From assembly GCA_017615655.1 (NCBI GenBank), contig JAFZZS010000005.1:80445-144444 (forward strand): DNA of 64,000 nt, written 5' to 3'. Positions within the stretch are counted from its first letter, which is position 1, and each line of letters opens with the position of its first letter. Source of the stretch: Alphaproteobacteria bacterium (lineage in GTDB: Bacteria; Pseudomonadota; Alphaproteobacteria; Rs-D84). The position numbers and the translations under genes were made by a program. Of the stretch, positions 13,671 through 64,000 are shown piece by piece. Under the pieces are notes generated by a model. That model was not told where the DNA came from. It ran no database searches and worked only from the letters and a program-made list of their open reading frames with translations.

Positions 13671-13671
13671 T

Positions 13672-14676: not shown

Positions 14677-14679
14677 GGT

Positions 14680-14707: not shown

Positions 14708-14708
14708 A

Positions 14709-23827: not shown

Positions 23828-23854
23828 AAAAAATGCACCATTTGGTGCATTTTT
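23828..23854. terminator. Bidirectional terminator after tRNA-Val
   Basis: A6-tgcacca-t-tggtgca-T5. Confidence 0.8.
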
Positions 23855-24938
23855 ATCTTGTTTTTCTTGGAAAGACGCCACGATTTATACCTAATTCGAC
23901 CGACGGTGCAAATTTGCCAAAGTTTTCATTTGGTGTTCCATCTGCATTTGGTTGGTATACCGGGTCATGATATGTTGCGCCAACCGCGACATATGCACCG
24001 CTGGCTGTGTGGTATATACCGATAGTTCCACCCTTGATTCCATCATCAGATTGTGCAAACCCGGTTAATGCGATGGATGCAACATTGTCTTTTAACTTGT
24101 ATTGATATGTTCCAAAAAACGCTGGCCGTTCACCCATATTCAAGAATTCCAACAACATTGAACTATTGTATGATGGGTTGCACATTATGTGAATATTGCC
24201 AATTGTGCGTTCTTTATCCAGTATAAGAATGCCACCAAATTTAAAATTATCTTCGATTTTCTGTTGCAAAACAAATACAACAGCACCATTCCCGGTGAAT
24301 TTTAACCCTGGGGTATATTCGGCATATCCGCCCGAAACAGTAGTTTCATCACCAGTGTATGTTGCAATTGCCGCGCGTGGAAAGTAATGACCAGCGCTTA
24401 GATAAGCCGCATTTATGAAATAATGGCTTACAGGCATAACTTTTGAAAAATTGATAGAATAGTTTAGTGCGGAAAATTTGCCATATTTGACATCAAATGT
24501 TCCAACCGACGTCCACAATGCAACAGTCATATACATATCGTGCGTAATAGATGTCATGTTTTGCCCAGTGTAATTTTGAATCATTTGCGTTGTCGTGGCG
24601 CCAATGGTTAGTTTATCTTTGATACGAACAAAAGGCTTAACCACAACCAACGGTGAAAAAACAGTCCGCAAATTATCTTGTGATGTATGCGTAAAAGATT
24701 CTAATTCGACATACAGCGCATCTTCGGGATGTGAAAATTTAACGGTTGGATTTTTAGGTTTTGGTGGTTCGTTCAAATTTATTGGGTTTTTATGTGTCAA
24801 TGTTTCCATTGGATCAAAATGTGAAATTGTATCACTATTAACATTTTGTGCGGCAACATTACCACCAAATAACATCGCTAAAACATAGGCAGCTAAATAT
24901 TTCCTGTTGATGAAAAAAAGTCTATTTTTCTTGTTCAT
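23853..24938 (-). CDS. Hypothetical exported protein, probable beta-strand-rich outer-membrane protein
   Basis: Signal peptide after MNKKNR; many alternating hydrophobic/polar strand-like segments. Confidence 0.6.
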   Translation of the reverse strand: MNKKNRLFFINRKYLAAYVLAMLFGGNVAAQNVNSDTISHFDPMETLTHKNPINLNEPPKPKNPTVKFSHPEDALYVELESFTHTSQDNLRTVFSPLVVVKPFVRIKDKLTIGATTTQMIQNYTGQNMTSITHDMYMTVALWTSVGTFDVKYGKFSALNYSINFSKVMPVSHYFINAAYLSAGHYFPRAAIATYTGDETTVSGGYAEYTPGLKFTGNGAVVFVLQQKIEDNFKFGGILILDKERTIGNIHIMCNPSYNSSMLLEFLNMGERPAFFGTYQYKLKDNVASIALTGFAQSDDGIKGGTIGIYHTASGAYVAVGATYHDPVYQPNADGTPNENFGKFAPSVELGINRGVFPRKTR

Positions 24939-25060
24939 GCAAAGCAAAATAATACACAAAATAACATTTGTCAAGTAATTAGACAGAATTATATAATTTG
25001 CACCGATGGGCTTTTTATGATATAATTACCAACATAAAAGACAAAAAAGGATGGGAGATT

Positions 25061-26712: not shown

Positions 26713-27456
26713 TTATCTGTGTCGTAATCCCCAGTAATATGCCGTATTGATATATTGGGCGGCACGTTCAATATCAAATTGATTCGTTTCTGGGTTCTTT
26801 AATTTTCCCTCGGCGTCTATCCATGTGGTATAATCAGCAGGCAGTACATAATTTATCTTATCAAGATTATTTGCAATGTTTTCTGGTGATAAACCGCCAC
26901 TGTAACCCATTTTATGTTTGTCCATAACAGGTGCACGCCAACTTTTCGGGCTGATACCGCGACCACCCGATGCATCAAACAATAATGAAAAAGGAACCCC
27001 GGTTTTACTCAGTGCATGAATCCGTTCGCGTTGCGCAGGCGCGTATTGAAATATAAATTCAATGTCTGGGTATGCACGAATAATATCTGCAACTTTTTGC
27101 GCATAGAAACGGTATTTATTGCTGCCACCGTTGATGTTTATTTGAATCCGACCAATTACATGTTTGCCATTGTCGCGTTTCAAATCAATCATACGCTTTA
27201 TTTCATATGGAATTATCCCGTTACAAATTTCTGTGCGCCATTCCGAATTAACGTGCATTGCAAGATTTATGTTATTTACACGTGATGCATGCAAAAGCGT
27301 ATCAAACCAAACATATCGTGGCATATGTGCAGAAAATTTAGTTGGATGTGCCTGAATTGCGAATTCTGCCATTGGGTACTGTTTACCAAGGTTGATAATG
27401 TCATCTATGGTATTATATTCACGCATATCGCTGCAGGTTATTTTTTCTAAAATCAT
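26713..27456 (-). CDS. Stand-alone TrpF/PRAI-like TIM-barrel protein
   Basis: LFDASGGRG, GYSGGLSPENI, WIDAEGKLK..FD motifs. Confidence 0.7.
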   Translation of the reverse strand: MILEKITCSDMREYNTIDDIINLGKQYPMAEFAIQAHPTKFSAHMPRYVWFDTLLHASRVNNINLAMHVNSEWRTEICNGIIPYEIKRMIDLKRDNGKHVIGRIQININGGSNKYRFYAQKVADIIRAYPDIEFIFQYAPAQRERIHALSKTGVPFSLLFDASGGRGISPKSWRAPVMDKHKMGYSGGLSPENIANNLDKINYVLPADYTTWIDAEGKLKNPETNQFDIERAAQYINTAYYWGLRHR

Positions 27457-36886: not shown

Positions 36887-37396
36887 ATGAAAAAGATATT
36901 ACTAACATCAATACTTGCGGTTATTGTTGGAACAACAGTGGCAAATGCAGATAATAATACCGGTGATAAGAAAGTAACATCAAAAAGTTATGTTGATACA
37001 AAATTTCAAGAAAAAATACCAGTAAACAGTGCTACGATTACAAGCAAAGCAGGCACTGTAAATATACCAAATACTTTGGTGTTGTCCCCAAATGATACAC
37101 CTGGAGAAGTCGGAGAAAGGGGCGTCCTTGACTACGATCTTATTAATATTCCGGCAGTAGCGGCAACAATTACAGGCAATTATAATACTCCGCCTGAAGA
37201 TGTTATTGACTTGCTTAGCTTGGATGCTTTTGAAGGTTTAGTACCCACTGCAGAAATTATAGCTGTGGCCGCCGCTAATTCTCTTGATGAAAAGCAAAAC
37301 AAAATGACATGTGTCGGATGGCTGGACGGAACAATAACACCCGATGCAACACATACTAATGCAAATTGTGCACTGTGGAATTTTGAAGCGCAATAA
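36887..37396 (+). CDS. Small secreted protein with K.YVD motif and C-terminal Cys pair
   Basis: Signal peptide, VTSKSYVDTKFQEKI, KQNKMTC...NCALW. GAGGG RBS. Confidence 0.75.
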   Translation: MKKILLTSILAVIVGTTVANADNNTGDKKVTSKSYVDTKFQEKIPVNSATITSKAGTVNIPNTLVLSPNDTPGEVGERGVLDYDLINIPAVAATITGNYNTPPEDVIDLLSLDAFEGLVPTAEIIAVAAANSLDEKQNKMTCVGWLDGTITPDATHTNANCALWNFEAQ

Positions 37397-39468: not shown

Positions 39469-39927
39469 ATGAAAACAGAATATGGCAGAAGTTTAATAGA
39501 AATGATAGGTGTCTTGGCGGTAACAGGCGTGATGACGGCAAGTGCAATTGCAATATATAACACAATCCGTCATAATCAGCATAATACAATCGCGGCGGCA
39601 ACATTACGTGAAACCGCCAAAAATACAAAATTATTGATGCAAATGCGTGGCGATTATACCGGTGTTTCGGTTGATTACTTGGTCAAAGCCGGGGCACTTA
39701 CATCTGATGCAGCACCTGTTGGAAAAACATGGTCAATTGATGTTGGTGCCGTAGATATCGCAACATTTGAAATTAAATTGCATGGTTTATCACACGGTGA
39801 ATGTGATTTCTTTGTCGCAACAATTCCGGCATGGGCCGAGGCAATGTTCGTAAACGGTGTCTCATCCACAGAATATGTGCAATGTATTTCTGCATCAGAA
39901 AATGATATAACTTTTGTTGTAAGATAA
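39469..39927 (+). CDS. Type IV pilin (PilS-like)
   Basis: MKTEYG|RSLIEM plus hydrophobic helix; GDYTG..LVKAG..P.G, two C-terminal Cys. Confidence 0.75.
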   Translation: MKTEYGRSLIEMIGVLAVTGVMTASAIAIYNTIRHNQHNTIAAATLRETAKNTKLLMQMRGDYTGVSVDYLVKAGALTSDAAPVGKTWSIDVGAVDIATFEIKLHGLSHGECDFFVATIPAWAEAMFVNGVSSTEYVQCISASENDITFVVR

Positions 39928-39929
39928 AG

Positions 39930-40604
39930 ATGAATAAAAGTTTCTTTGCCTTTATATTGGTTTTATTATCTGCATGCGCAGGGTACAAAAGTCCAGATCG
40001 TGCGACATGGGGAACATACCTGCATGGCGCAAGTTTTACTGATATGACTGCCAGTGCACAAATTGCAAAAAAACCGATATACCTTGGTGATGGTGGGCGG
40101 ACAGTTTCTGATTCAATTGATAAAAATGCCGAGATGAATTATGGCGATAAATCTGATAACGAATCGGCGATGAATATAAAGTATATGTCCGAACTAGAAT
40201 ACAAATTATATGACGCATTGCGTCGTCCAGGGATGTCAGTACAACGTGCCGGAACAGATGTCGTAATTATTTTGGTTCGTGACGCCATTATGGAATTAAA
40301 TGCGCCGGAAATATCCACGGATGGTGATGAAAACCTTGGGACCATTGCAAAAATATTGAAAAAATATGATGCTACATTTATTGAAATCGCCGGATATACC
40401 GATTCCATGCGTGACGCATCTGCGGCGCGCGCATTCACATTAGATATGGCGGAAAGGGTGGGGGTATATCTTGCGCAGCATGGGGTTAAACAGACGCGCA
40501 TGTTTATTACTGGACGTGGTTCTGCGCGCCCGATTGCATCACAAGATGAATGGGGGCGTTTAACAAACCGTCGTGTTGAAATACGAATCACGCCCGTGCG
40601 ATAA
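39930..40604 (+). CDS. OmpA-family lipoprotein
   Basis: Lipobox LSAC, GYTDS, G.GSARPIA, NRRVEI. Confidence 0.88.
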   Translation: MNKSFFAFILVLLSACAGYKSPDRATWGTYLHGASFTDMTASAQIAKKPIYLGDGGRTVSDSIDKNAEMNYGDKSDNESAMNIKYMSELEYKLYDALRRPGMSVQRAGTDVVIILVRDAIMELNAPEISTDGDENLGTIAKILKKYDATFIEIAGYTDSMRDASAARAFTLDMAERVGVYLAQHGVKQTRMFITGRGSARPIASQDEWGRLTNRRVEIRITPVR

Positions 40605-45437: not shown

Positions 45438-47696
45438 TTATAATGTGACTGGGGTCAAATCTTTCAATTCGTTTGTCTGAGGGTTATAATACCGTGGTAT
45501 ACCTGCGTATTCCAAAATTGCATGATGTGTCGGTATAAGGAATTCCGGTAATGGTGATGACCGCCCCATCTTTATATACGATGCCATTTTCGGATCGCTG
45601 AATGCCATGCGCATTTCAGCTTTGATTGGACGATGGTTATAACCTTCGTATAATATAACTGCTTCGGCAGGTTTTCCACCAACAGTGACTTTAAGTTTCA
45701 TTAAATCAAATGCACTAAATACTGGTTCTTCCTTCTTTTCTTTGTTTTCGGTTTCTTTGCCGTCAGGTCCCTTGACCTTTTTCTTTTCGGTGGTTATCTT
45801 CATTGGCATCATATCAGCAAAGCGTTTTGCTGTATCTATGTCGTTTTGACGGAATACAATCTTGGCAGCAGTAGTTGACATGATTGTCGAAGCGGCGTCT
45901 GGACCATATTTCTCTTGAATTTGGTGTATGTCCTGACCGATGAACATATACGATATTTTTTGGCTACGGCCGACGTCTGGTCCCTGAATAACAGCTTGCA
46001 TCTTTTGCATTTTTGGCATTTCATCAAGCAAGAATAACACTGGATAGGGTCCCATTTTTTCGCCACTGCGTCCAATCGCGTCAGGTGGATTTGCAAGCAA
46101 GAAATTAGACATTGTCTCAACAAACATTGATGTAATTGGGGTTAACGCCTTGGCATCCACCATATTCACCGACAGGTAAACCGTGACAGGTTTCATTTTG
46201 CCGTCTCGGGGGTCAACCATTCCACGCATATCACAAAAATGAAAATCAGAGTGGCTAGTACGATTGCGGACGGCAGCATTACGGAATATTGCAAGCCCGG
46301 TCAAAATCGTTGAAATAATAGAACCACGTTCTGTTGAAGGTGTGTTAGCAAGCTTTGTTAACTCAGCAATTGCACGATTAGAGTATGCAAAAGAACGACA
46401 TTCGTTCACGGCACTTTCTAACCAATCTTTCATTGGATCCGCCATCATAACGGTTTGGTCCCCTTGTTTTTGACGTTCGGCCAAATCGGCAGCAACGGAA
46501 ATTTGTGCTTCGGTCATCCAATCTAACATCATTGAAAACGATGCTTCTTTACCTAGCCATGCTTGTGGTATATTTGCCCATGTACCGATATGAACATAAT
46601 TCATTGCATTCAATTCGCCTTTGTTAATCATTCCCATTGCGGCGAATGCGTTTGGATCGTTTACCATGGAAAAATAATAGTCTGATAAAACTGCCGCGTC
46701 ATCCGCATCAAATGTTCCAGATTGCAGGCGACTATAGAAATAATCATCTGCCTTGGCTCGTTCAATTTTAGAAACGATAAACTGTATAAATCCGGCAAGT
46801 CCAGCGCGTCCAGCTTGGGTCCAGTGCGGATCGGCGCTGCTGCCTACGGCATCTGGAACTAGCACATCACAGATATAGTCAACATACAATTCGCGTTGTT
46901 CAGTACTGAATGGTATATGCCCTGGTGAAAGCGGATTCCACGATGGATAATAAATACCTTTTTCGGGTTCATCTTGCCCCGCCCAGTTCATAATAAACAC
47001 CGGTCCGACTTTTTCGGAACGATAGCCACTGGAATAGACATCTATTTCTGGTTTTGGGTCGTTTATAATCATCGAAACTTCTGGACATTCAAAAATAGTT
47101 GGCAACACAATACCTTGTGTTTTACCGGTTCCCGGAGGCGCTAAACAAAGAATAGAAGTTGTTTTTGGTAGTTTTAATGGTTTTTTCTTAAAATACCCAA
47201 GAACCATCATAAAACCATCAAATAATCCCATTTCTTTGACGTCTTTTTCATTTGCTTCGCGTCCAGATTTTTTATCGTATTCATCTTTTCCGTTGGGATT
47301 GAATTCTTTTTTTAATGTATCATCATTTAGCAAAAAGAACGCAATTATCGGGAAAAATGGAACGATGCATGCAAAGTCTGGATGCATGATACAGCGCAAC
47401 ACCCAATAAGGAATTTCGGCAACAACTGACAGTCCAAGGCTTGAAAAAGCGTTTACCAGATAAATTTTTATCCAAACGGCTGTTGCTGGTGACCAACCAT
47501 ACCGCCAGATGTGTTCTAAAATGAATGATGCGCAAAACGCAATAGCACATATAATCCACACAATAACAGCCCAACGCAATGCCCAAAACGTCTGTGCCAT
47601 TGGGGTTTGTTCGTGTTCTTTATAGGCACTGGATTTGAATATATTCAAACCCTTGCTATCTTTGCCTGCAGATAAAATCTTGAACTTTTCAACCAT
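45438..47696 (-). CDS. virD4: VirD4/TraG-like type IV coupling protein
   Basis: Two N-terminal TM regions, Walker A APPGTGKT, DPKPE, WNPL, DPHW, Walker B LLDE, GRS.KI, Q...KYG. Confidence 0.88.
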   Translation of the reverse strand: MVEKFKILSAGKDSKGLNIFKSSAYKEHEQTPMAQTFWALRWAVIVWIICAIAFCASFILEHIWRYGWSPATAVWIKIYLVNAFSSLGLSVVAEIPYWVLRCIMHPDFACIVPFFPIIAFFLLNDDTLKKEFNPNGKDEYDKKSGREANEKDVKEMGLFDGFMMVLGYFKKKPLKLPKTTSILCLAPPGTGKTQGIVLPTIFECPEVSMIINDPKPEIDVYSSGYRSEKVGPVFIMNWAGQDEPEKGIYYPSWNPLSPGHIPFSTEQRELYVDYICDVLVPDAVGSSADPHWTQAGRAGLAGFIQFIVSKIERAKADDYFYSRLQSGTFDADDAAVLSDYYFSMVNDPNAFAAMGMINKGELNAMNYVHIGTWANIPQAWLGKEASFSMMLDWMTEAQISVAADLAERQKQGDQTVMMADPMKDWLESAVNECRSFAYSNRAIAELTKLANTPSTERGSIISTILTGLAIFRNAAVRNRTSHSDFHFCDMRGMVDPRDGKMKPVTVYLSVNMVDAKALTPITSMFVETMSNFLLANPPDAIGRSGEKMGPYPVLFLLDEMPKMQKMQAVIQGPDVGRSQKISYMFIGQDIHQIQEKYGPDAASTIMSTTAAKIVFRQNDIDTAKRFADMMPMKITTEKKKVKGPDGKETENKEKKEEPVFSAFDLMKLKVTVGGKPAEAVILYEGYNHRPIKAEMRMAFSDPKMASYIKMGRSSPLPEFLIPTHHAILEYAGIPRYYNPQTNELKDLTPVTL

Positions 47697-50193: not shown

Positions 50194-51216
50194 TTAAAAT
50201 GTTACACGCAAACCTGCGGCTAAGAAAGGTTCTGCACGCGATATACCGACCGATGTCCAACCATCTATGTATTTACTGTATTTATATCTAAATGAAGCCA
50301 GGGCAGTGTGATCATTATGATTTTTAAATTCATCATGCCATATACCTGTTTCGGAAAATATGTATGACAATGATAGAGTATAATTTAATAAATCATAACT
50401 GATGCCGGCACCAGCAGTTATACCATCGGCTGCAACATCAATGGGGTTTTCGTCATAAATCAAACGCCCATTAAGTGCAAAAATCCAACTGTTATATTGA
50501 ATGTTTGTACCAATTGCCAGTTGTCCACGCCAATCGGCTGTAACTTTTGGAACAAATGTTGCAGTTTCATAATCATCAAGATGATTCATAAATGATGCAC
50601 CAATTGAAAACGCATATTTTGTTTTGCTTGATGATTGTTTAATTTTTATTCCAGCATCGACACCAAAATCATAATCACCGGTAATTCCCGCAACGGATAC
50701 ACCATATTGAATATTATTACGCGATGCAGAGACGATATTCAATCTTAGCGCATCGGTGCCATTGGTAATTTCATTATTTGCGATAACCGGTCCACCGGTT
50801 CCCATTTTACGATAAATAAGAGAATCGTGATTTATTCGCATTCCACCGACATCTGGCAGCCCAAGCCCCAGTTTGTGAGCAACAGAATCTGTGAATCCAG
50901 CCTCTATGCGACCAACGCCACGCCATTGCCAGAAACCAAATGCATCATGTAGCCAATTATCTTCATACACAGCATCTTCGTCTATCATATATACTAAACC
51001 AAAGGCATGTGTATCAGAAGGTGTGTACATCACCTGACCACGAACACGAAAATCACCAATAAAATCTGGCTTGTCAAAGTTCGGCTCAATAATACCCGCG
51101 GTTCCATAACCCGTCAGCGAGAAATTAAAATTATCTGTTTTATAACCAAGTGCGTTTGCATTAAACGGCGCGACTGCCGCCAAAATTACACCAATAGAAC
51201 ATAATTTATTCGTCAT
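50194..51216 (-). CDS. Outer-membrane porin
   Basis: Signal peptide, GRIEAG..DSVA..L motif of alpha porins, C-terminal Phe (AGLRVTF). Confidence 0.8.
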   Translation of the reverse strand: MTNKLCSIGVILAAVAPFNANALGYKTDNFNFSLTGYGTAGIIEPNFDKPDFIGDFRVRGQVMYTPSDTHAFGLVYMIDEDAVYEDNWLHDAFGFWQWRGVGRIEAGFTDSVAHKLGLGLPDVGGMRINHDSLIYRKMGTGGPVIANNEITNGTDALRLNIVSASRNNIQYGVSVAGITGDYDFGVDAGIKIKQSSSKTKYAFSIGASFMNHLDDYETATFVPKVTADWRGQLAIGTNIQYNSWIFALNGRLIYDENPIDVAADGITAGAGISYDLLNYTLSLSYIFSETGIWHDEFKNHNDHTALASFRYKYSKYIDGWTSVGISRAEPFLAAGLRVTF

Positions 51217-52129
51217 CGTTTTTACCCATGGTTTCTGCCAAAATTGCATCACGCAATTTATTATAGGCGCGTTCTTCGATTTGTCTTACACGTTCACGCG
51301 AAATATTATACTTTTTTGATAACATTTCAAGTGTAGCCGCTGGTTCGCTAAGTCTGCGTGCTTTTAATATTTCTCTATCTCGTTCAGGCAAATTTGCAAA
51401 ATGTTTTTTTAACAGCACACCACCGCGTGTCAAAAGTTCATTTCGTTCACTGTCTTCAACTATACTGGTGCCAGTATCTGCCATATTAGAAAGCATATCT
51501 GCACTATCTTGTTCTGCGGTTCTTGCGGGTGCATTAAGTGACAGGTCGCGTGCAACGATTCGTGTTGACATACGTCTTACATCTTCGGCAGGCACACTAA
51601 GGTATTCTGCAATTTTCTCGGTCTGTTCATCCGATAGGTTACCGTCCATGATTCCTAATGCACGTTTTGCCCGTGCAAGATTAAAGAAAACACGTTTTTG
51701 ATTTGCAGATGTCCCGATTTTTACAATAGACCAATTATTTAATATTGTTTCATATATCTCTGCGCGAATCCAAAACATTGCATAGGTTGAAAATCTAAAA
51801 CCACGTTCAGGATCAAATTTTTGTAATGCTTGCATTAATCCCATATTACCACTTGCCACAAGTTCTTGGACTGGAATCCCATAATTACGGAAATCATAGG
51901 CAACCGATACGACGAGCCGCAAGTGACTAACTAGTAATTTTTCTGCTGCGGTATTATCTTTGTCTTTTACCCATTTTGTTGCGTATTCATATTCTTCTTC
52001 GGCAGAAAGTATAGGAAACTGGCTTATTGTGCGAATATAACTTGTTAAACTGGTATCATCACCATAGGTTGGTATGGCGATGCTGGTTTCTGATTTTGGT
52101 ACTAATGCGTTCTTGATTTGCTTTTTCAT
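51206..52129 (-). CDS. rpoH: RNA polymerase sigma-32 factor
   Basis: SHLRLVV, KFDPERGFRFSTYA, RpoH box WSIVKIGTSANQKRVFFNL, SRERVRQIE. Confidence 0.96.
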   Translation of the reverse strand: MKKQIKNALVPKSETSIAIPTYGDDTSLTSYIRTISQFPILSAEEEYEYATKWVKDKDNTAAEKLLVSHLRLVVSVAYDFRNYGIPVQELVASGNMGLMQALQKFDPERGFRFSTYAMFWIRAEIYETILNNWSIVKIGTSANQKRVFFNLARAKRALGIMDGNLSDEQTEKIAEYLSVPAEDVRRMSTRIVARDLSLNAPARTAEQDSADMLSNMADTGTSIVEDSERNELLTRGGVLLKKHFANLPERDREILKARRLSEPAATLEMLSKKYNISRERVRQIEERAYNKLRDAILAETMGKNDDE

Positions 52130-54274: not shown

Positions 54275-55609
54275 ATGATAAAAATAACAATAGCCGGACG
54301 GCCAAATACAGGTAAATCTACATTGTTTAATGCGTTGACAGGAACGCGAGATGCGCTTGTGCATGATCGTCCAGGGGTAACGCGCGATACGATATACGGA
54401 ACCCTTTCAATACGCTCAGATTGTCAGATTTGTGATACCGCTGGATTAGAAAATGCACGCAAAGGTATTGCTGCTGATTCAACGGGCATGGCATTGGACG
54501 CAATTTCTTCGGCAGATGCTATTTTGTTCGTTGTTGATGGGCGCGCAGGTTTATTGTCCGAAGATATGGATTGGGCGCGAACTGTACGTCGCAAGACGCG
54601 TGCGCCAGTATTATTATTAGTTAATAAATCAGAATCTGGCAAAAGATTAAATAATATTCACGATTTCTATAAATTAGGTTTTGGAGAGCCTGTTTTGATA
54701 TCTGCAGAACATAAAACTGGTTTTGATTCCATATTTGAATTTTTAGAGCATATTGCACCTGTGACCAAAGGTGATAATACCAAGGAGGAACCCGAAAGAC
54801 GTGTTAAAATAGCAGTCTTGGGACAACCAAATGTCGGCAAATCTACACTGGTAAATCGGGTACTGGGGGAAAATCGCCAAATAGTCAAAGATGAACCCGG
54901 TGTAACACGCGATACAGTCAAAATTCCTGTGAAATTTTACGGACGTGATATTTTATTAATGGATACCGCTGGATTACGTCGTAAATCAAATGTTCATGAT
55001 GATGTTGAAACATTGTCCGCACTAAAATCACTGGATGCGATTGAAAAGTCTGATGTGGTTATTTTAGTTGTTGATGCAACGCGCGATATTGAAAATCAAG
55101 CACTAGGGATTGCTGCACGTGTATATGATGCGGGTAAAATTCTGTGTGTTGCATTAAATAAATGGGACCTTGTTGATGCGGATGAACGTGACGAAAAATT
55201 ATTAAAATTGAAACATCATTTTACAAATTCTTTTCATCAGATAATAAAGCCGATGATACTTGCAATATCTGCCGAAACGGGAACAGGCGTTCAAAATATG
55301 TTTAAACGTATTTATGAACAATGGGATATTTCAAATACAACCGCCCCAACAAGTTTGCTAAACAAGATAATTGGCGAATTAGTCGAATCACGCCAGCCCC
55401 CAATGTCGCGCCTAAAACGGCCGATGAGAATTAAGTTTGCATCACAAACTGGACGTCATCCGATGCGTATAACCATAAATGTTGGTGGGGCATCTGATAT
55501 CCCAGAATCATACACCAGGTATCTGCGGCGTGGCATTGCGTCGGCATTAAAGTGGGAACATTTGCCCATCACAATTGAATATAAAAAAGCAGATAACCCG
55601 TTTGATTAA
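54275..55609 (+). CDS. der: Ribosome biogenesis GTPase Der (EngA)
   Basis: Two G domains: GRPNTGKSTLFN/DTAG/NKSE and GQPNVGKSTL/DTAG/NKWD. Confidence 0.95.
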   Translation: MIKITIAGRPNTGKSTLFNALTGTRDALVHDRPGVTRDTIYGTLSIRSDCQICDTAGLENARKGIAADSTGMALDAISSADAILFVVDGRAGLLSEDMDWARTVRRKTRAPVLLLVNKSESGKRLNNIHDFYKLGFGEPVLISAEHKTGFDSIFEFLEHIAPVTKGDNTKEEPERRVKIAVLGQPNVGKSTLVNRVLGENRQIVKDEPGVTRDTVKIPVKFYGRDILLMDTAGLRRKSNVHDDVETLSALKSLDAIEKSDVVILVVDATRDIENQALGIAARVYDAGKILCVALNKWDLVDADERDEKLLKLKHHFTNSFHQIIKPMILAISAETGTGVQNMFKRIYEQWDISNTTAPTSLLNKIIGELVESRQPPMSRLKRPMRIKFASQTGRHPMRITINVGGASDIPESYTRYLRRGIASALKWEHLPITIEYKKADNPFD

Positions 55610-55616
55610 ATATTTA

Positions 55617-55961
55617 CTAATTTAATGTAGTCAAAAACATTGGAAAGGCGTTTTCTTCGTCATCAACATTTTCGGTTGATTCGGCTTGTTCTTGGGCATC
55701 AGTGACCACGGTATCACTGGCGGGTAAATCCACCGGTGTTTTAGGATCACGAGTCGAATCAATTTTGCTTTGTTCTTCGTTTACTATACGTCCATAATGT
55801 TCCGCCGCCTGAAGCAAGCGTTCCCGTTCAATTTCGTCGGTTGCCACGCGTGCCTGGTCCATGTATTGTTTACGTTTTTGGCGCCATTTATGACAGCGTT
55901 GAATCATCATGCCAACAGACGATTGGTTCTTTGCAGAAGGTTGATTTTTTCGATTTAACAT
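55617..55961 (-). CDS. DUF4167 domain protein
   Basis: Y.DQAR.A..E.ER.LQ.AEHY.RI signature, acidic tail. Confidence 0.7.
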   Translation of the reverse strand: MLNRKNQPSAKNQSSVGMMIQRCHKWRQKRKQYMDQARVATDEIERERLLQAAEHYGRIVNEEQSKIDSTRDPKTPVDLPASDTVVTDAQEQAESTENVDDEENAFPMFLTTLN

Positions 55962-56106
55962 ATTTTTTCTTTTGTTTTGGAAATAAGTTATGGACGAAGG
56001 CTTTTGCCACACCGTCCCCATCAAACAAGAGTAATGTTAAAACATCTTAAAAGCGATTGCAATATTTTTTTTCAATTGCTATGCTTTCATTATACAAGGG
56101 GGGATT

Positions 56107-57474
56107 GTGCATACACAACGCGGTAATTTTTTACTTCAGGCATTACTTGCACTGACATTGGTGTTTGTGTTTATACCGTTTTTTGCAAAACGTTTAGCAC
56201 TAAGTGACATCAGCTCCCAAATGTATGCCACAACACGTCAGGTTGATGTGGCAAAGACCGCGTCTCGAATTTATATCCAAGAAAATGCTGATTCATTACC
56301 TTATAACAAGGTTGTATTATCTGGCGATAAGTTTTCCGATGTTCTTGAACCTTATGGTTTGCCATTGGGATTTATTGCGCGAACTGCGCTGGGTCAGGAC
56401 ATAAGTTTGATTATAAACAAGGATAGCGAAGAAATTACCGCATTTTTGCGTCTAAGCGGTGGAAACCTAAATACTATTCAACGTGCAGAACTGGCCCGCA
56501 GAATCGGATTTTACGCTGTGTACAATGTAAATGAACCTGATGGCGATATAGATGTTGGTATACAGCTTGGTGATACTTATTCTGACGTTGTAAAAAGAAA
56601 TGAAAAAAATTCTGATTTTGTTGGTTTTTTGACAGATCTTGATATGGGCGGATTTCGTTTTGATAATGCCGCAAATATTTTAGGGATGCGTGCGGCCTTT
56701 GATACGGGTGAAATAACAACACTTTCAATAACAGGAAATGAAGTAGGTCGCAAAGAAAGAAACAATATAAAAGCAATAAATGCGAACAAAGTTGTATTTC
56801 AAACTGGGTCTGGGGAATCAGCATTGTCACTTACGCGTGGAACATTAAAAGCAGATGCATTAGTTGCGCGCACAATATCAAAATTTGGTGAAACAGGAAA
56901 CTTAATAGCGGTCGATGCTGCGTTTGATAATTTTGATATGACTACTGGTCGAACTGGCTTTACCGGACCAGACAAATGGAATATTGGTGGTAATGTCGTA
57001 ACCAGTCGCATAACATTCAGTCTTGAAAGATTGGAAGTTTCGTCGTTTGTGAATGCAACACGGGGTCAAGATGTTTTCATAGATGCTGATACCCTTTCTT
57101 ACAGCACCGCCAGTGGTATAGAAACAAATAACATCTATTCATCGCATATAACTCTGCGTGACCAAACATCTGATAGTTTGTCGCGTGGCGGCAGTGGGGC
57201 TGTTATTTTAGATATTCGTCCTGCAGGCGCATCAGTTTTACCGGATGCACTAGTTGATACAATAAATAACGAATCTTTTTCAATTTTAGCAAATCCGACA
57301 ACTGATAATGATAATACCATAAAGTGCGAGTCAATTATTAGTGATTTGGGCAGTACTTATAATCAAAAATCACTAGCGCAATATATAATTTGTCAGTATG
57401 TGTTCTGGCAAAGACTTGAACACAGAATAAGTGTGAAACAATGTCTAATGGAGGGCGGTAATGATTGCAAGTAA
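56107..57474 (+). CDS. PilV-like minor pilin/adhesin 1
   Basis: GTG start, QRG|NFLLQ plus hydrophobic helix with P18-F19, TDLDMGG...NA motif. Confidence 0.7.
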   Translation: MHTQRGNFLLQALLALTLVFVFIPFFAKRLALSDISSQMYATTRQVDVAKTASRIYIQENADSLPYNKVVLSGDKFSDVLEPYGLPLGFIARTALGQDISLIINKDSEEITAFLRLSGGNLNTIQRAELARRIGFYAVYNVNEPDGDIDVGIQLGDTYSDVVKRNEKNSDFVGFLTDLDMGGFRFDNAANILGMRAAFDTGEITTLSITGNEVGRKERNNIKAINANKVVFQTGSGESALSLTRGTLKADALVARTISKFGETGNLIAVDAAFDNFDMTTGRTGFTGPDKWNIGGNVVTSRITFSLERLEVSSFVNATRGQDVFIDADTLSYSTASGIETNNIYSSHITLRDQTSDSLSRGGSGAVILDIRPAGASVLPDALVDTINNESFSILANPTTDNDNTIKCESIISDLGSTYNQKSLAQYIICQYVFWQRLEHRISVKQCLMEGGNDCK

Positions 57475-58666
57475 ATTAAGAATCTTTTCGCCCAAATCAA
57501 AACAAGAAATTGTTGCACAGCACGGTGGTGGGTTGGTGGAAATTTTATTGGCATTGGTAATTGTTTCTGTGGCGGCACCTTTTACGTATTCAATGATTTC
57601 AGAAACGACACATACGATGCATAACATGGCCATGGCAAATGATATAATAAGTTTGCGTAATGGGGTTTTGAACTTTATTCGTGTAAATCAAGACTTATGG
57701 CCAGAAACCGCGCAAATAAAACTATCTGACGAAGAGTTAGCAGAATTTTCAGATTCTATTTCTGCTGGTTTTATAGATAAATATTCAGTATATGGTGGTT
57801 TGGTCATAGATGTATATTTATCATTTGATTTTCAACTGCCGACAAAACGCGTTGCGCAAATTGCTAATAATATTGGTTCAGATGCTGCAATTGTGGGTAT
57901 TGATGGTGTGGCGTATGGTGATACCTGGGCGGTAACCAGTCCAGATTTTAGACCAGGAAATTTAATTTATAAAATAACACGCAGTTTATCCGATTTGGAT
58001 ACCGCGCGTTTCTTGCATCGTGGTTCATCAGGTGAAGATAATTTGAATGTTATGGAACGTGATTTAAATATGGGTGGACACGATGTTTATAATGTCGGGG
58101 GCATAGATGCGAAATCTATTCGTGTTCGTAATTTAGATGCAACGTTTGTTGATGCAGAAAGCATAAATGCCAAGAATGTGTATTTTTCATCGGGGGCAAA
58201 TGTAAATGGTGATAATGTAAAAATTGGAACATTACGTGTTTCTGGTGATGTAACAGGTTTTAGAAATATAGAAGCCCAAAGAATTAATAATTCTGCATAT
58301 ACGGTGAATGGGCGCATAATAGCTGACCGTGCAACGATAAATAAATCTGTCAATGTTGCACGTGATTTTAAACTTAAATCTACATCGTTAAAAACAATCA
58401 GCGGTTTTGCGGGTATGACAGTTGGGTCTGTTTATGCACCATATATTTCTACGGACGAGATAATATTTTATGAAAGTTTCGGATTGACGGTGTCTGGGGA
58501 ATTATTGGTATCGACAACCGCGCCAATAAAGTTTGGCAGTTGGGTATTTCCGTCTACGACACCACCATCATTTAGTGCATTAAATTTAACACGGGCGACA
58601 ATGCCCCTTCCGCCAGAAACAGAAGAATTCAAGGCGATATTAACAAAAGATTGGAAAACGAAATGA
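57461..58666 (+). CDS. PilV-like minor pilin/adhesin 2
   Basis: QHG|GGLVE, P18-F19, RFLHR...LNVMERDLNMGGHDVYNVG (shufflon-N-like). Confidence 0.75.
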   Translation: MIASKLRIFSPKSKQEIVAQHGGGLVEILLALVIVSVAAPFTYSMISETTHTMHNMAMANDIISLRNGVLNFIRVNQDLWPETAQIKLSDEELAEFSDSISAGFIDKYSVYGGLVIDVYLSFDFQLPTKRVAQIANNIGSDAAIVGIDGVAYGDTWAVTSPDFRPGNLIYKITRSLSDLDTARFLHRGSSGEDNLNVMERDLNMGGHDVYNVGGIDAKSIRVRNLDATFVDAESINAKNVYFSSGANVNGDNVKIGTLRVSGDVTGFRNIEAQRINNSAYTVNGRIIADRATINKSVNVARDFKLKSTSLKTISGFAGMTVGSVYAPYISTDEIIFYESFGLTVSGELLVSTTAPIKFGSWVFPSTTPPSFSALNLTRATMPLPPETEEFKAILTKDWKTK

Positions 58667-59976
58667 AATCACATAATCGCATTTTTTCAAATTTCTTTTC
58701 AAATCGTGGAACGGTGCTGATAGAGTTTTTATTAACAATCGGGCTTGCTGCGACATTAATGCCTTTTATATACAGTTATCAACAGCGCGCTTTGACACGT
58801 GCAGAAAATGTTAAAGTAACCAAGAGTATGCAAAAAATTCAATCTATTTTAGAGCGCTATATCGTTGAAAACAAGGATCGTATGTTGATAACTGTTGGCA
58901 GAACAATATTCAAATTGAATTTGTCGGATTTGATAGACTATGGTTTAGACGAAGAATTTGTACGTGCCGCAGAAAATAAATACCAATTAAGAGTATTAAA
59001 GTCGATGGATTCGAGTGACCAGGCTACTCTTCAAGGTGTCATAGTTCTTAATGATGCGGATATTACCCCATTGCGTACACGTGAAATTGTTTTGCTGGGC
59101 GATGAAAAAATAGGTTTTATTGATGGAACACGTGCATATGGAGGATTTGGAACATGGCGCACAGATACAGTTGATTTGGGAATCGAAGGAACATCTGGAA
59201 TTGTCCAAACAACAAATATAAATCGTGATAATTCATTATATTTGTGGCGTGTTCCATCTGATTCTGCGGCAGATGCTACAATGCTTTCTGCGTTAAATCT
59301 TGGTGAACGTGATATTAAAAATGCAACATTTGTAAATACGATGGGACTTTCATTAGGTGAAACACTAGAAATAAAAAAAGCCGTGGTGAATGATTTAATC
59401 TTTAAAAATCGTACCACCATAGATACAGAATTTAAAACCCCCAGTGGTGTAGTATCAGGGACGTTAGCGGGCGATTCAAAAAATATAGCAATTTCAGGAA
59501 CACTAAATTTGGCGGACATAGCAAAGGTTTCAAATCTTACAGCAGATAATTTATGGGTAAATGAATTGACGTTGGCGGGTCTTTCTACACCATCTGATAC
59601 TGCGTCTACATTGCGTTCAGCGGGTTCATTAGATATGACCGAGGGTCGTATCAGCGCGCTTTATATCACAGTTGGTTTTACTGGTTCATTAACATCGCGC
59701 CTTGTAGTTAAAAATAAAATTATGGATTCGGTAAACAAAGATTATTTTTGGGATGTTAAATCCAGAACAGCAAATTTGGCGGATATAACGTCACCAACCT
59801 TGAATGATTTAGCATACAAAATACTGCGGCGTGAATCGATATCTGGTTCTGCGTCTACACGCATTTTTAGCAGTGTTGTGTCAAATAAAAACGCAACGGT
59901 TGCAGACTTTATGAATGCTATAAATGAAATTCAACAAAATGTGCGTGGGAAATATCACATGTTGAAATTAGAATAA
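58663..59976 (+). CDS. PilV-like minor pilin/adhesin 3
   Basis: NRG|TVLIE, P18-F19, YLWR...TMLSALNLG..DI.NA. ATGA overlap with the previous gene. Confidence 0.75.
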   Translation: MKSHNRIFSNFFSNRGTVLIEFLLTIGLAATLMPFIYSYQQRALTRAENVKVTKSMQKIQSILERYIVENKDRMLITVGRTIFKLNLSDLIDYGLDEEFVRAAENKYQLRVLKSMDSSDQATLQGVIVLNDADITPLRTREIVLLGDEKIGFIDGTRAYGGFGTWRTDTVDLGIEGTSGIVQTTNINRDNSLYLWRVPSDSAADATMLSALNLGERDIKNATFVNTMGLSLGETLEIKKAVVNDLIFKNRTTIDTEFKTPSGVVSGTLAGDSKNIAISGTLNLADIAKVSNLTADNLWVNELTLAGLSTPSDTASTLRSAGSLDMTEGRISALYITVGFTGSLTSRLVVKNKIMDSVNKDYFWDVKSRTANLADITSPTLNDLAYKILRRESISGSASTRIFSSVVSNKNATVADFMNAINEIQQNVRGKYHMLKLE

Positions 59977-59999
59977 TTTATGATATAACAGGATATGCC

Positions 60000-60521
60000 A
60001 TGAAGATAAAATGTGAAGTTTGTAAAACAGAATATGCATTACCAAACGATACTACGTGCCCTGTACGTTGTGCGGTTTGTGGTAATGTTTGGACACCACC
60101 ACGTGCAAATCGGCGCAGTGGTATAATGGTTTTCATTGCATCACTTTGTGCGTTACTTGCGGCCACAATTTTTGCAGTCGCTGTTATTGTTACATCACGT
60201 CGCGATGATCCGAATAAACGCCCACTTGTTGCGACAATAACAGATGTTTCAACAATAAACGAGGATGAAAATACCCCAAAGATTGTCGTAAAGGGAACAG
60301 TAACCAATCGTTCCGATGATATCTATGGTTTACCAGATTTGATAATCGTTCTTTATGATGCTGCGGGTGCGCCTGTGGTCAGACAGAAATTTATGCCATC
60401 TGCAACCTTATTAGATGCGGGACAATCTGTTGAATTCTCGCATACATTATCTGGAATCGAAGGCGGTGTAAAACGCGTTTCCGTCGAACTGATGGAAGCA
60501 GAACAAGGAGGGACGAAATAA
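60000..60521 (+). CDS. zitP: ZitP-like zinc-ribbon / TM / DUF3426 protein
   Basis: MKIKCEVCKTEY...VRCAVCGNVW zinc finger, TM helix, V.GTVTN.S..Y.LP.L...LYDA.G. Confidence 0.75.
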   Translation: MKIKCEVCKTEYALPNDTTCPVRCAVCGNVWTPPRANRRSGIMVFIASLCALLAATIFAVAVIVTSRRDDPNKRPLVATITDVSTINEDENTPKIVVKGTVTNRSDDIYGLPDLIIVLYDAAGAPVVRQKFMPSATLLDAGQSVEFSHTLSGIEGGVKRVSVELMEAEQGGTK

Positions 60522-60985
60522 TGAAAAAAATTATCGCAATATTTCTATTATTGTTGCCGATTTGTGCAGTTGCAAATGATAACCCACTACCGCCACTATC
60601 GCCACGTGTAAGCATTTTTTCCACAACAACAGATTGGGCGGCACTTACTGGATTGCCGTTGCGTCAATTTACCGGAAATTTCAGTTGGACTAATTCAGAT
60701 GTAATGCGAGGAATGGTTTTGTATTATTTAGATTCTTTCCCTTGTTATGGCGAGGCCGATAGTGTTCGTATATGGCTTGGACCGAATAGACAATCAGAGG
60801 GAAAATTGCGACTTGTCTGTGTTCATGCGCCTGATACAATTAGTTTCGCATGGCGCAATGCAACACGCGATGCAGACCAAGCAGAAAGCAAAGGTATCTT
60901 AACCTGCCCAGTAACAGGTGATTATGAATTAAAAATAGATATATCCAAATGTGTGCGCGGTCCTGAATGGAAGGAATACAAATAA
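60521..60985 (+). CDS. Hypothetical secreted protein
   Basis: Signal peptide, 4 Cys in the mature part, start overlaps the zitP stop. Confidence 0.7.
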   Translation: MKKIIAIFLLLLPICAVANDNPLPPLSPRVSIFSTTTDWAALTGLPLRQFTGNFSWTNSDVMRGMVLYYLDSFPCYGEADSVRIWLGPNRQSEGKLRLVCVHAPDTISFAWRNATRDADQAESKGILTCPVTGDYELKIDISKCVRGPEWKEYK

Positions 60986-60988
60986 CTT

Positions 60989-61942
60989 ATGGTTGATATA
61001 CGTGAATTTGTTGTTTCTGATGAATCCGCAGGATTGCGGCTAGATAAATTTTTGGTTGGGGTTTTACCAAATTTTTCACGCAGTGAAATCCAACGTTTTA
61101 CAATATATCGAAATGGTGCAAGTGCAAAGTTTTCCGACAAAGTTAAACCTAGTGATAAAATAAAAATCGAAGTGCCCGAGCATCATACTGATGTTGCGAT
61201 GGATAATATTTCGGATGAATTGGATCTGGATATCATTTACGAAGACGAAGACATTATTGTCGTGAATAAACCGCGTGGTGTTGTGATGTATCCAGCGGCG
61301 GGTAATAAAACAGGAACATTGGTTCAAAACATATTGTCATATACACACTTGTCATCACTTGGTGGGGAAACCCGCCCTGGTGTCGTTCACCGTTTGGATA
61401 AGGACACCAGTGGCATAGTTGTTTTGGCAAAATCAGATAGGGCATATCGTGAATTGATAAAAATATTTTCTGTGCATGATTTAACACGAAAATATGTGGC
61501 ATTCGTTTGGGGGGTGCCGAATTGGACAGGTGCCGATATTACCGGAAACATTGCACGGTCTTCACGTAATAGACAAAAGATGACAATGGTAAAATCTGGG
61601 GGTAAGCCAGCACATACTGTTGTTGATGTGTTAAATGTTTGGCCGCGGACAGGTGTATCAGAGTTTCGGTGCACGCTTATGACTGGACGGACGCATCAAA
61701 TAAGGGTTCATTTGTCGGCGCATGGTTTTCCGGTATTATGCGACCCCGTCTATGGTCGCGCATCATCAAGACTAGGTTCGGTTCGCAACCCAGAATTATT
61801 AGATTTTTTAAAAGAGCATCATGGTCAAATGTTGCATGCGCAGATTCTAGAGTTTAATCACCCAATTACCGGTCAAAAAATGCATTTTAAAACAGAATTA
61901 CCAGATGATATGTTGGAATTGAAAGCGATTTTAGATAGCTAA
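60989..61942 (+). CDS. rluD: RluA/RluD-family 23S rRNA pseudouridine synthase
   Basis: RLDKFL, NKPRGVV..P, RPGVVHRLDKDTSG, TGRTHQIRVH, QMLHA. Confidence 0.93.
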   Translation: MVDIREFVVSDESAGLRLDKFLVGVLPNFSRSEIQRFTIYRNGASAKFSDKVKPSDKIKIEVPEHHTDVAMDNISDELDLDIIYEDEDIIVVNKPRGVVMYPAAGNKTGTLVQNILSYTHLSSLGGETRPGVVHRLDKDTSGIVVLAKSDRAYRELIKIFSVHDLTRKYVAFVWGVPNWTGADITGNIARSSRNRQKMTMVKSGGKPAHTVVDVLNVWPRTGVSEFRCTLMTGRTHQIRVHLSAHGFPVLCDPVYGRASSRLGSVRNPELLDFLKEHHGQMLHAQILEFNHPITGQKMHFKTELPDDMLELKAILDS

Positions 61943-62040
61943 TTTTTCCCCCTAATAATAATCGCTGACACCGACCACTTTTTTCTTTTTTTTTATTCGG
62001 TTGTATGGTATAATTAATTGATACCAAAAGGGGACCGAGA

Positions 62041-64000
62041 ATGAATATTCTGACAAAATATAGTGGATTTTTGGCTGTTTTATGCCTTGTTAATGTGGCA
62101 AATGCGGCGGGCGGACTGCGTACAACTACGGGAAATACGTCGCGTATTTCTGTGGCCACAGCACCAGGTACCAATACCAAAACGATGACGGCAACCCAGG
62201 CGGCTGCGCGTCGTTTACCGACAATGATATCAACCAGTTCGGTTGTCACAACGGGTACCACAAGCACAACAACAGCGTCGCTTTTGACCAAAACAGAATG
62301 TGTCGAACAATACACAGAATGTATCAAAGAAGCGGATGTCTGTGGTTTTGAATTTGAAGAATGTACAACATCCGAATTGTTCTATGCGAAAAAACCCCAG
62401 TGTAACAACGTATTGTTGCAATGCGCGGCTGATGGTATCAATGCTCTTTTTGGAACAAACAACACAACAAATCTTGCAACCAAGAACGCAAATGGTGAAT
62501 ACGTGTATCCAACCGCAGGCAGTATTCTTGGTCAATTTATTGAGGCAGGACATATAAACAATCTTTACGACACCAGTACATGTGTAAAACGTGTTACATC
62601 ATGTTTGAAAAAAGAAAATGTATGTGGCGAGGATTTTGAACTTTGCACAACTAACAAAGAATTCAAAAAACAGAAGTTATTCTGTGAATCTACATTGGCA
62701 CGTTGCCAAGAAGGTGGTTTAACAGAATTGTTCGGTTCTGCAAGTTCATCTGCAAATCCGACCAGTGCCAGTCGTTTGGGTGTTATGATTTCCGAAGGTG
62801 CGGAACTGGCATCTGTGAATGCGGTTTCTACGTGTTACAAGGTCGCAGATCAATGTATATTGTCAGCATGTACTGCAAACCCATACAGATGTATCAAAGA
62901 CAGCAGTTTCGCCCTTTCAACAATCACTGATGCGGTTAACGAAGGCAAAGGTTTGCCACCAGAACAAGCCGAAGCATCCTCGGATGTTGTTACACAAAAA
63001 CAAGTTTCTGGATTTATCATGAATTCATGTCTTGATACTATTGGCGGAAACAAATATTGCTATGCCACCGCGAACGACGGAAAAATGCCATCAGCAGCAC
63101 AGTTAATGGATCCAGACAATCGTGACGAAGTTTATGCGAATATTTATGCATCTCGTATGAATGCGGGCATGATGGATAAGATTCAGAAAATGGCTGATAA
63201 GTTTGACAAGAAAACCAAAGATAAATGCAGCGACACAATTATGTCTTGTGCAATGCGTTCATGTGGTTCAGGTTTAGGTTCTATGTGTTATAGCTTGGTA
63301 TTCGGTCAGGGTCGTCAAATGGCCGACTTCAAGGGAACAATAAACGGTGACAATTCATACCAAGAAATTAAAAATGGGTGCGAAGCGATTGTGAATACTG
63401 ATGCAAATTGTCAGTACGCGGCCGCAACAGCAAATGCAAATACATATAATTACAACTATTCTGATTCTGGCACGTTTGGAACATTGTTCCCGTTATATTC
63501 AGAAAGCGAATCGGATCCATTGGGTGTAGTCGCAAGACTTAATGCCGCATTAGCCGATAATTATAATGATGCAGCGATTGCAGCATTGGCAAAACAGTGT
63601 AAAAACACCGCGGTTAGTTGCATTAAATCTATGTGCGGTTCTGATTACACAAATTGCTATCGTAACCGGACCGATATCATGTCCGATACATACGATACCG
63701 GCAATTCTGCATTCGACCACAGTATGAACAAGGTTGGTGGCGTACTTGACTTTACAATCGTTACCGGACTTTGCATGGAAACGGTCAAGAGTGCAACCGC
63801 CTGTGATGAGCATTTGAAAATACAATCTGTTCGTTACATGTCCGATGATGGAGCAGAAGGTTGGGGTAAAAACAGTGTTCGTACAGCGTGGGTTGATGCA
63901 GTAAAAACAGGATATAAACAAGCCACGGATGCAAATGGTAATGTAAAGAAATATACCGAAACAGTTTTGATGGGTTGTACAGTTGGTACCAGCAGTACTT
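62041..64000 (+). CDS. Large cysteine-rich secreted protein (3' partial; absent from the ORF track)
   Basis: ATG 62041, signal peptide MNILTKYSGFLAVLCLVNVANA, Thr-rich linker, repeated Cys modules. No in-frame stop before the window end. Confidence 0.9.
   Translation, partial: MNILTKYSGFLAVLCLVNVANAAGGLRTTTGNTSRISVATAPGTNTKTMTATQAAARRLPTMISTSSVVTTGTTSTTTASLLTKTECVEQYTECIKEADVCGFEFEECTTSELFYAKKPQCNNVLLQCAADGINALFGTNNTTNLATKNANGEYVYPTAGSILGQFIEAGHINNLYDTSTCVKRVTSCLKKENVCGEDFELCTTNKEFKKQKLFCESTLARCQEGGLTELFGSASSSANPTSASRLGVMISEGAELASVNAVSTCYKVADQCILSACTANPYRCIKDSSFALSTITDAVNEGKGLPPEQAEASSDVVTQKQVSGFIMNSCLDTIGGNKYCYATANDGKMPSAAQLMDPDNRDEVYANIYASRMNAGMMDKIQKMADKFDKKTKDKCSDTIMSCAMRSCGSGLGSMCYSLVFGQGRQMADFKGTINGDNSYQEIKNGCEAIVNTDANCQYAAATANANTYNYNYSDSGTFGTLFPLYSESESDPLGVVARLNAALADNYNDAAIAALAKQCKNTAVSCIKSMCGSDYTNCYRNRTDIMSDTYDTGNSAFDHSMNKVGGVLDFTIVTGLCMETVKSATACDEHLKIQSVRYMSDDGAEGWGKNSVRTAWVDAVKTGYKQATDANGNVKKYTETVLMGCTVGTSST

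Follow-up and report, generated by a model that had tools for sequence, protein, structure and literature searches.

A conserved set of three PilV-related pilin-like genes beside a ZitP-like gene in the core chromosome of Rs-D84 Alphaproteobacteria

PilV serves as tip adhesin and minor pilin in the type IVb thin pili of IncI1 and IncI2 plasmids (R64, TP114), PAPI-1 and SPI-7; in plasmid mating pili it is familiar as one adhesin that a shufflon switches. ZitP of Caulobacter is a PopZ-binding polar factor that recruits CpaM and is required for the biogenesis of the Tad pilus. Here we describe a locus of Candidatus Enterousia, of the uncultured order Rs-D84, in which three tandem genes, P1, P2 and P3 (the triad), encode pilin-like proteins related to PilV and are followed by a gene for a ZitP-like protein. 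The locus lies in a 64,000-nucleotide stretch of contig JAFZZS010000005.1, and this whole stretch is referred to as the window.

Three published results bear on the comparison. The large type IVb pilins TcpB (Vibrio cholerae toxin-coregulated pilus) and CofB (enterotoxigenic Escherichia coli CFA/III) initiate pilus assembly from the tip (PMC5207764). A glutamate at position 5 of the mature pilin (Glu5) is required for docking of a subunit under the previous one, and most systems have exactly one minor pilin without Glu5, which is taken as the first subunit of the filament (PMC5207764). In Caulobacter ZitP, the DUF3426 domain is the part needed for pilus biogenesis (PMC5182063). As for the host, Enterousia genomes are 0.75-1.0 Mb long and lack most biosynthesis and respiration, and dependence on a partner cell has been proposed (PMC12306168).

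The triad and its relationship to PilV

The triad opens a tightly packed series of genes on the forward strand (a slash marks the predicted cleavage site):

56107..57474, +, P1: PilV-like pilin-like protein, 455 aa, GTG start, 6-aa leader MHTQRG/NFLLQ
57461..58666, +, P2: pilin-like protein, 401 aa, ATG start, 22-aa leader ..AQHG/GGLVE
58663..59976, +, P3: pilin-like protein, 437 aa, 16-aa leader ..SNRG/TVLIE
60000..60521, +, ZitP-like gene: 173 aa, zinc ribbon, transmembrane (TM) segment, DUF3426
60521..60985, +, o154: 154 aa, signal peptide, conserved, no known family
60989..61942, +, RluD: continues the tight series after o154

The GTG of P1 is preceded by AAGGGGGG, seven bases upstream, and GGAGGG lies ahead of the P2 ATG. 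P1 and P2 overlap by 14 nucleotides (nt), the P3 ATG (58663) sits inside an ATGA that also contains the P2 stop, the ZitP-like gene starts 23 nt downstream of the P3 stop, and the start of o154 overlaps the ZitP-like stop (TAATG). A preliminary description of this DNA had placed three overlapping genes ahead of a zinc-ribbon/TM/DUF3426 gene, and the list of open reading frames (ORFs) bore out these coordinates; independent public gene calls on identical contigs reproduced the protein lengths of 455, 401, 437 and 173 aa. Because promoter- and terminator-like sites were at or below chance level in a sequence scan, the six genes from P1 to RluD probably form a single transcription unit.

We found that P1, P2 and P3 are very probably PilV-related pilins. 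Direct Pfam and NCBIfam scans of the three proteins gave nothing useful, pairwise BLAST among them was marginal, and tblastn of P2 against plasmids returned no significant match; the relationship emerged from profiles. A hidden Markov model (HMM) of 23 P2 orthologs, run against 1.84 billion representative proteins, recovered 177 clusters at E ≤ 1e-3, which beyond P2 orthologs included P3-family proteins (E ~1e-6) and proteins with canonical pilin N-termini. Among the distant matches, 17 of 40 carried Shufflon_N (PF04917; best 4.5e-56) and 5 of 40 carried N_methyl. In turn, a reference Shufflon_N protein found its match in 2779 plasmids (88% conjugative), in genes with the annotation "pilus tip adhesin PilV". 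When the P2 alignment was compared with eight Shufflon_N proteins by hhalign, the probability was 99.2% (E 2e-19, 226 columns), and FLHRGSSGEDNLNVMERDLNMGGHDVYNVGG of P2 was aligned onto YLYR..PG.PELNTM.TDLNMG.NDINNV of the Shufflon_N proteins. With 84-86 orthologs per family, the probabilities against the same set were 96.3% for P1 (E 1.5e-9), 99.4% for P2 and 99.1% for P3 (E 3.8e-19), while the three families matched each other at 96.5-98.8%. The kinship with PilV/Shufflon_N proposed in the preliminary description was thus upheld by profile comparison as a remote homology of all three proteins (96-99%).

We also considered that the PilV similarity might reflect the generic pilin helix only, and rejected this explanation, because scores persisted when the N-terminal helix was removed (P1 72.7%, E 3e-5; P2 98.3%, E 2e-14; P3 98.1%, E 9e-14) and the controls, the resident small pilin and unrelated neighbour proteins, reached probabilities of 0.1-13%.

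The three paralogs are not equally close to PilV. In a phmmer search, an annotated PilV from the Xanthomonas citri plasmid plA matched 49 of 85 P3 orthologs (best 2.4e-11), and the same protein scored by the family HMMs gave 4.8e-10 for P3, 8e-6 for P2 and 0.011 for P1; by these scores P3 is the paralog nearest canonical PilV and P1 the most derived. The segment [YF]LxR...M...L[DN][ML]G...N, earlier ascribed to all three proteins, is clear in P2 (FLHRGSSGEDNLNVMERDLNMGG) and P3 (YLWRVPSDSAADATMLSALNLGE), and in P1 it has a degenerate form, ...FLTDLDMGG. A 26-nt direct repeat with 73% identity (58043-58068 and 59293-59318), which encodes LN.(M/G)ERD(L/I) in P2 and P3, is a DNA-level trace of the paralogy of these two genes. 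Four much larger proteins, P0217, P0224, P0239 and P0249 (830-3183 aa), have a pilin-type N-terminus (..QRG/SLMVEALA..) and are recovered by the P2 profile with E-values between 1e-8 and 1e-5, perhaps as giant representatives of one and the same superfamily of pilins. A search for relatives seeded with P0211 found the query itself only.

The N-termini carry prepilin signatures that are fixed among orthologs. Position-wise conservation was scored over the 84-86 orthologs of each family, drawn from related loci, and over 56 orthologs of a small pilin encoded elsewhere in the window. The glycine at -1 is invariant across the P1, P2 and P3 orthologs (~85 each), and a hydrophobic helix of ~20 residues follows it. 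In P1, all 83 orthologs that are not gapped at these positions have G(-1) and Q(+5); P2 has G22 in 85/85 and E27 (+5) in 85/86, P3 has G16 and E21 (+5) each in 85/85, and the small pilin has G(-1) and E(+5) in 56/56. Pro(+18) is invariant in the three families and Phe(+19) is retained in 73-84 of the 84-86 orthologs of each. The residue at +1 is N in P1, G or A in P2 and T or S in P3, rather than F or M. Even in two distant loci (L088 and L089), where P2 identity is down to ~30%, the P1 motif G/NFLLQALLALTLVF is still present. The aligned N-termini G/NFLLQ, G/GGLVE and G/TVLIE with P18-F19, noticed earlier in single sequences, are therefore confirmed and conserved among orthologs.

An AlphaFold model of P2 (AF2, 65-sequence alignment) predicted residues 25-177 at pLDDT 82-90, with a 55-residue alpha1 helix (25-79) that leads through a helix-containing loop into a beta-sheet. 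This predicted head layout is of the pilin type and is consistent with, rather than decisive for, a pilin fold. Its top Foldseek match in the PDB was an Xcp minor pseudopilin (probability 0.92, TM 0.55, E 0.39), and when the P2 profile was searched against PDB sequences, the only match, a Geobacter pilin, was not significant. A weak Bactofilin-type match at P2 235-298 suggests a beta-helix-like stalk. Taken together, these comparisons indicate that P1, P2 and P3 are anciently duplicated pilin-like proteins, each with a putative PilV-type head and a predicted beta-rich C-terminal domain of ~200 aa.

Conservation of the locus and its neighbours

P2 has more than 1000 homologs, all from alphaproteobacterial metagenome-assembled genomes (MAGs). 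We scanned one genome per GTDB species, found relatives in 147 of these species genomes, and kept the best 80 loci; most of these belong to MAGs from rumen and gut, and many are labelled Candidatus Enterousia. The order DUF4167(-), P1, P2, P3, ZitP-like, o154, RluD(+) was present in every one of these 80 loci that was long enough, so that the synteny in related genomes on which the preliminary description had made its proposal depend is kept in relatives. The full order was also found in L087-L089, where P2 identity is 26-31%. Given more than 1000 homologs and the same order wherever enough flanking sequence was available, the arrangement is far beyond chance. The housekeeping neighbours RluD, DUF4167 and DnaX are equally syntenic within Rs-D84, and Der also lies in the neighbourhood. 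Because these flanks are just as fixed, linkage alone is no proof of functional coupling, and the synteny is a sign of ancestry more than of function. Core chromosome also makes up the remainder of the window, with MreB, AccC, RecF, MacAB-TolC, ParAB, MutS, PNPase, LptD, NusA, IF2, DnaX, LpxD, Der, a BamB-like protein and a sigma factor.

Two outgroups carry the same ordered triad, and their three genes (g1, g2, g3) have P1, P2 and P3, respectively, as best HMM matches. In L092, an alphaproteobacterial MAG of 37% GC, RecO and RNase H come after the triad, and g1 keeps Glu5. In L093, a metagenome contig of 59% GC, RimP-NusA-IF2 flank the triad on one side and a convergent VirD4-like gene on the other, and g1 has Gln5. 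The outgroup g1 and g2 proteins give sub-threshold PF04917 matches (5e-6 to 1.5e-3). No ZitP-like gene adjoins the triad in L092 or L093. The triad is therefore the conserved unit, and the ZitP-like linkage is confined to Rs-D84; the linkage that had been proposed earlier is kept in relatives and is missing from both outgroup lineages.

The ZitP-like protein consists of an N-terminal CxxC-x15-CxxC zinc ribbon, one TM segment and a periplasmic DUF3426/FxLYD domain. Its Pfam matches are DUF3426 (1.3e-6, with 29.0 bits where the cutoff is 27.7) and Zn_ribbon_4 (6.6e-6), and among its orthologs Zn_ribbon_4 was found in 34 of 34 and DUF3426 in 25 of 34. The four cysteines and the tryptophan after the second CxxC (CxxC-x15-CxxC-G-x-x-W) are invariant in the family, whose profile had the ZitP zinc finger 2NB9 as its best solved structure (E 0.0036), ahead of AgmX. 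The Pfam matches and 2NB9 support the ZitP architecture that had been assigned to the fourth gene. We saw no popZ, cpaM or tad genes among the genes of the window, and we regard a functional tie between the triad and the ZitP-like protein as possible but doubtful. The next gene, o154, encodes a periplasmic protein with four cysteines and was found in every Rs-D84 locus that reaches its position; none of its orthologs has a Pfam match, and it was not seen beside the triads of L092 and L093.

The small pilin mentioned above is encoded 16 kb upstream of the triad, together with a lipoprotein:

39469..39927, +, small PilS-like pilin: MKTEYG/RSLIE, candidate major subunit
39930..40604, +, OmpA-family peptidoglycan-binding lipoprotein: lipobox LSAC, YiaD-like OmpA lipoprotein match at 7e-27

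Matches to PF08805 (PilS, the type IVb major pilin family) in 27 of 44 orthologs support a PilS-like identity for this protein; N_methyl was matched in 8 of 44, and the small pilin itself has a weak GspH match (E 0.02). Wherever the pilin occurs, the OmpA-family lipoprotein lies 0-3 nt downstream. In most relatives an OmpH-OmpA-pilin-DnaX block stands divergently ~2 kb upstream of P1, which indicates that the 16-kb gap between pilin and triad in the window is a local rearrangement.

Some further observations concern the surroundings. The ORF at 62041-64000 (+), which runs off the end of the window, is the start of a gene for a secreted protein, rich in Cys and ~1040-1090 aa long, whose N-terminal stretch is rich in Thr; it belongs to no known family. 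In 67 of the first 86 loci retrieved it directly follows RluD, and it may be located at the cell surface. The ORFs 23853-24974 (-), 24998-26659 (+), 26713-27456 (-), 50194-51252 (-) and 36887-37396 (+) match no Pfam or NCBIfam family, and the last of these has a signal peptide. One record, L071 (CAVGNU010000002.1), is named "Bacteroides fragilis isolate ... cleanbin_000047" and contains an alphaproteobacterial locus with full synteny; it is probably a mislabelled or contaminated bin.

Candidate functions of the triad

The reading that we favour, with a probability of roughly one half, is that P1-P3 work as minor pilins that initiate a PilS-like filament or form its tip complex, because the cleavage and docking signatures are fixed, a single member lacks Glu5, and the small pilin is retained. 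In the model that we infer for processing, filament incorporation, tip location, adhesion and any role of the ZitP-like protein, a prepilin peptidase would cleave P1, P2 and P3 after the invariant glycine, and the three proteins would assemble together, priming and capping a type IVb-like filament with the small PilS-like pilin (39469-39927) as its body. P1 (455 aa) is the sole member of its set without Glu5, and P2, P3 and the small pilin retain this residue. Since Glu5 is lost in P1 of all Rs-D84 genomes, P1 would be the first, distal-most subunit, with P2 and P3 docking beneath it. The fixed Gln5 of P1 may mark a first or tip subunit, and it is the strongest hint of an ordered tip complex with P1 uppermost; we likewise infer a heteromeric tip, with which the confinement of Glu5 loss to P1 would fit. 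The conserved C-terminal domains would then present a fixed, non-switching binding surface, by which this gut bacterium with its reduced genome would plausibly attach to a partner cell or to some other surface. In what is the weakest step of the model, the co-transcribed ZitP-like protein and o154 may help to place or assemble the structure in the envelope. Whatever the structure, the fact that the ordered triad has been kept in genomes below 1 Mb, in two outgroups and in no fewer than 147 species genomes argues for strong selection.

Several observations weigh against a tip complex. The search space for machinery comprised the window and 93 loci (1.75 Mb), mostly from the same chromosomal region, and in it we found no pilus assembly ATPase, platform protein, secretin or A24 peptidase. 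A motif search of the same sequences found no T2SSE Walker motif and no GxGDxK peptidase motif, phmmer found no homologs of PilN, PilO, PilP, PilQ or PilR of a real pilV operon, and the unannotated ORFs of the window belonged to no relevant pilus-machinery family. A published survey of Rs-D84 reports type IV pili only for another lineage (PMC12306168), and its silence on type IV pili in Enterousia is a mild warning. The curated families are also sparingly matched: N_methyl (PF07963) has no match in P1-P3 of the window and matches 1 of 109 orthologs, and PF04917 has no match in P1-P3 at E ≤ 1. None of 109 orthologs reaches PF04917 by itself at E ≤ 0.01; P1-P3 are remote PilV relatives that fall outside the curated family. 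On the structural side, neither of two Foldseek PDB searches, with two AlphaFold models, gave significant E-values, and the C-terminal half of P2 (180-401) was predicted as many short strands at low confidence. All neighbours of the cluster are housekeeping genes, so that operon membership is little informative, and P1 is encoded at the 5' end of the cluster, where GspK-type subunits are usually encoded last (PMC5207764). Finally, conservation is uniform along P1-P3, unlike that of variable adhesin tips, from which it follows that the C-termini are not variable adhesin cassettes. We also looked for a shufflon and rejected it; the region 55500-62100 holds chance-level short repeats only, and there is no recombinase in the neighbourhood.

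Many of these points would suit an alternative that we consider unlikely, namely that P1-P3 are relic pilin-like proteins that form no filament and serve as bitopic inner-membrane/periplasmic proteins with an envelope or cell-pole role, together with the ZitP-like protein and o154. The lack of machinery nearby, the survey without a report of type IV pili for this lineage, the housekeeping neighbourhoods and the uniform, non-adhesin-like conservation would all fit such relics, as would the probable co-transcription of the ZitP-like gene and o154 in all Rs-D84 loci. This alternative is difficult to reconcile with the persistence of G(-1) and E(+5) down to ~30% P2 identity, which is hard to explain without cleavage and docking, with the retention of a PilS-like small pilin that bears the same signature, and with outgroup triads that exist without a ZitP-like gene.

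A third reading makes the triad the accessory adhesins of a chromosomal VirD4/rvh-like type IV secretion system (T4SS), which mediate contact with a target cell. PilV pili of IncI and PAPI-1 elements stabilise mating pairs, and canonical PilV belongs to conjugative T4SS plasmids. In the window, a VirD4/TraG-type coupling protein is encoded at 45438-47696 (-), 8.4 kb upstream of the triad; its ortholog lies within 10 kb of the triad in six relatives with rearranged loci (L075, L052, L056, L023, L025 and L028), and in L093 a VirD4-like gene (12763-14931, -) adjoins the outgroup triad. This proximity may be a functional association or inherited synteny: it is loose, could have been inherited in small genomes, and is absent from most loci. 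Accessory adhesins would still need a pilus assembly machine, none of which was found in the window or loci, and they overlap with the tip-complex reading rather than exclude it; as a separate explanation we consider them very unlikely. A periplasmic pseudopilus, in which the triad would be the minor pseudopilins (GspI/J/K-like) of a type II secretion-like piston, is equally hard to credit, since the best structural match of the P2 head to an Xcp pseudopilin, the one large subunit without Glu5, as in GspK, and the weak GspH match of the small pilin (E 0.02) are set against a sequence homology specific to PilV/Shufflon_N and PilS of type IVb pili rather than Gsp, the absence of gsp genes from window and loci, and 200-aa C-terminal domains that are atypical of GspI/J.

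Returning to the tip complex, one may take it further. In its boldest form, P1-P3 would be an obligate heterotrimer at the tip of a PilS-type filament, with P1, which lacks Glu5, as the cap, and the filament would serve the genome-reduced Rs-D84 gut bacteria, which are probably symbionts or parasites, as the organelle that attaches them to partner cells; its assembly machine would be highly divergent or unlinked, perhaps working with VirD4/rvh, the ZitP-like protein and o154 would position it, and plasmid PilV would be a branch of an older chromosomal family and not its source. We hold this combination to be speculative and, taken whole, unlikely. The opposite direction, put forward in the preliminary description, in which a plasmid family became fixed in the chromosome, is not established either.

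Comparison with known systems

A literature search yielded no description of such a triad, in agreement with the earlier statement that no system with this arrangement had been described. Each of the closest systems resembles the locus in part. The ZitP-like protein has the same three-part architecture as Caulobacter ZitP, and the zinc fingers share a VRCAxCGxxW core; however, ZitP has 311 aa, compared with 173 aa here without a long linker, it serves the Tad (type IVc) pilus and not one of the PilV/PilS type, and the outgroup triads do without any such gene at their side.

The GspK-GspI-GspJ tip also has three subunits, one of them large and without Glu5 (PMC5207764), and a pseudopilin was the top fold match of the P2 head. 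These are nevertheless different protein families with no linked gsp machinery at this locus, and P1-P3 gave no Gsp family match in general Pfam and NCBIfam scans. Furthermore, position 5 is hydrophobic in GspK and Gln in P1, and the gene order differs too, with GspK last and P1 first. TcpB and CofB share with P1-P3 the large size and an extended beta-rich C-terminal region, but no sequence relationship to them was detected here, and in those systems one gene suffices where this locus has three distinct paralogs, one without Glu5. If P1-P3 form a tip complex, they would be a natural heteromeric counterpart to these single-gene minor pilins, and an entry point to how uncultured Enterousia and other Rs-D84 cells contact their partners in rumen and gut.

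The closest likeness is to PilV. P1-P3 are of similar size (400-480 aa), share with it a class III signal peptide, a constant region that is collinear and includes the motif YLxR..LN.M..DLNMG..I.N, and a beta-rich C-terminal part, and have a PilS-like pilin as candidate partner, as PilV has its major pilin. The relationship is remote, with no direct Pfam match and no plasmid tblastn match for P2, and the differences in organisation are clear. PilV is a single gene, subject to a shufflon, in a pilL-V operon on a conjugative element; the triad consists of three fixed paralogs without shufflon, recombinase or alternative C-terminal cassettes, one of which (P1) lacks Glu5, in the chromosomal core among DUF4167, Der, RluD and DnaX. 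These findings extend the PilV family well beyond mobile elements. The main interest lies in the retention of the triad in a minimal genome together with the apparent lack of a linked assembly machine, and since it was retained while metabolism was discarded, the triad is arguably central to the lifestyle of these bacteria. In place of one switchable plasmid adhesin, the PilV fold family is represented here by three genes, fixed in number and order, within the core chromosome of metabolically stripped bacteria.

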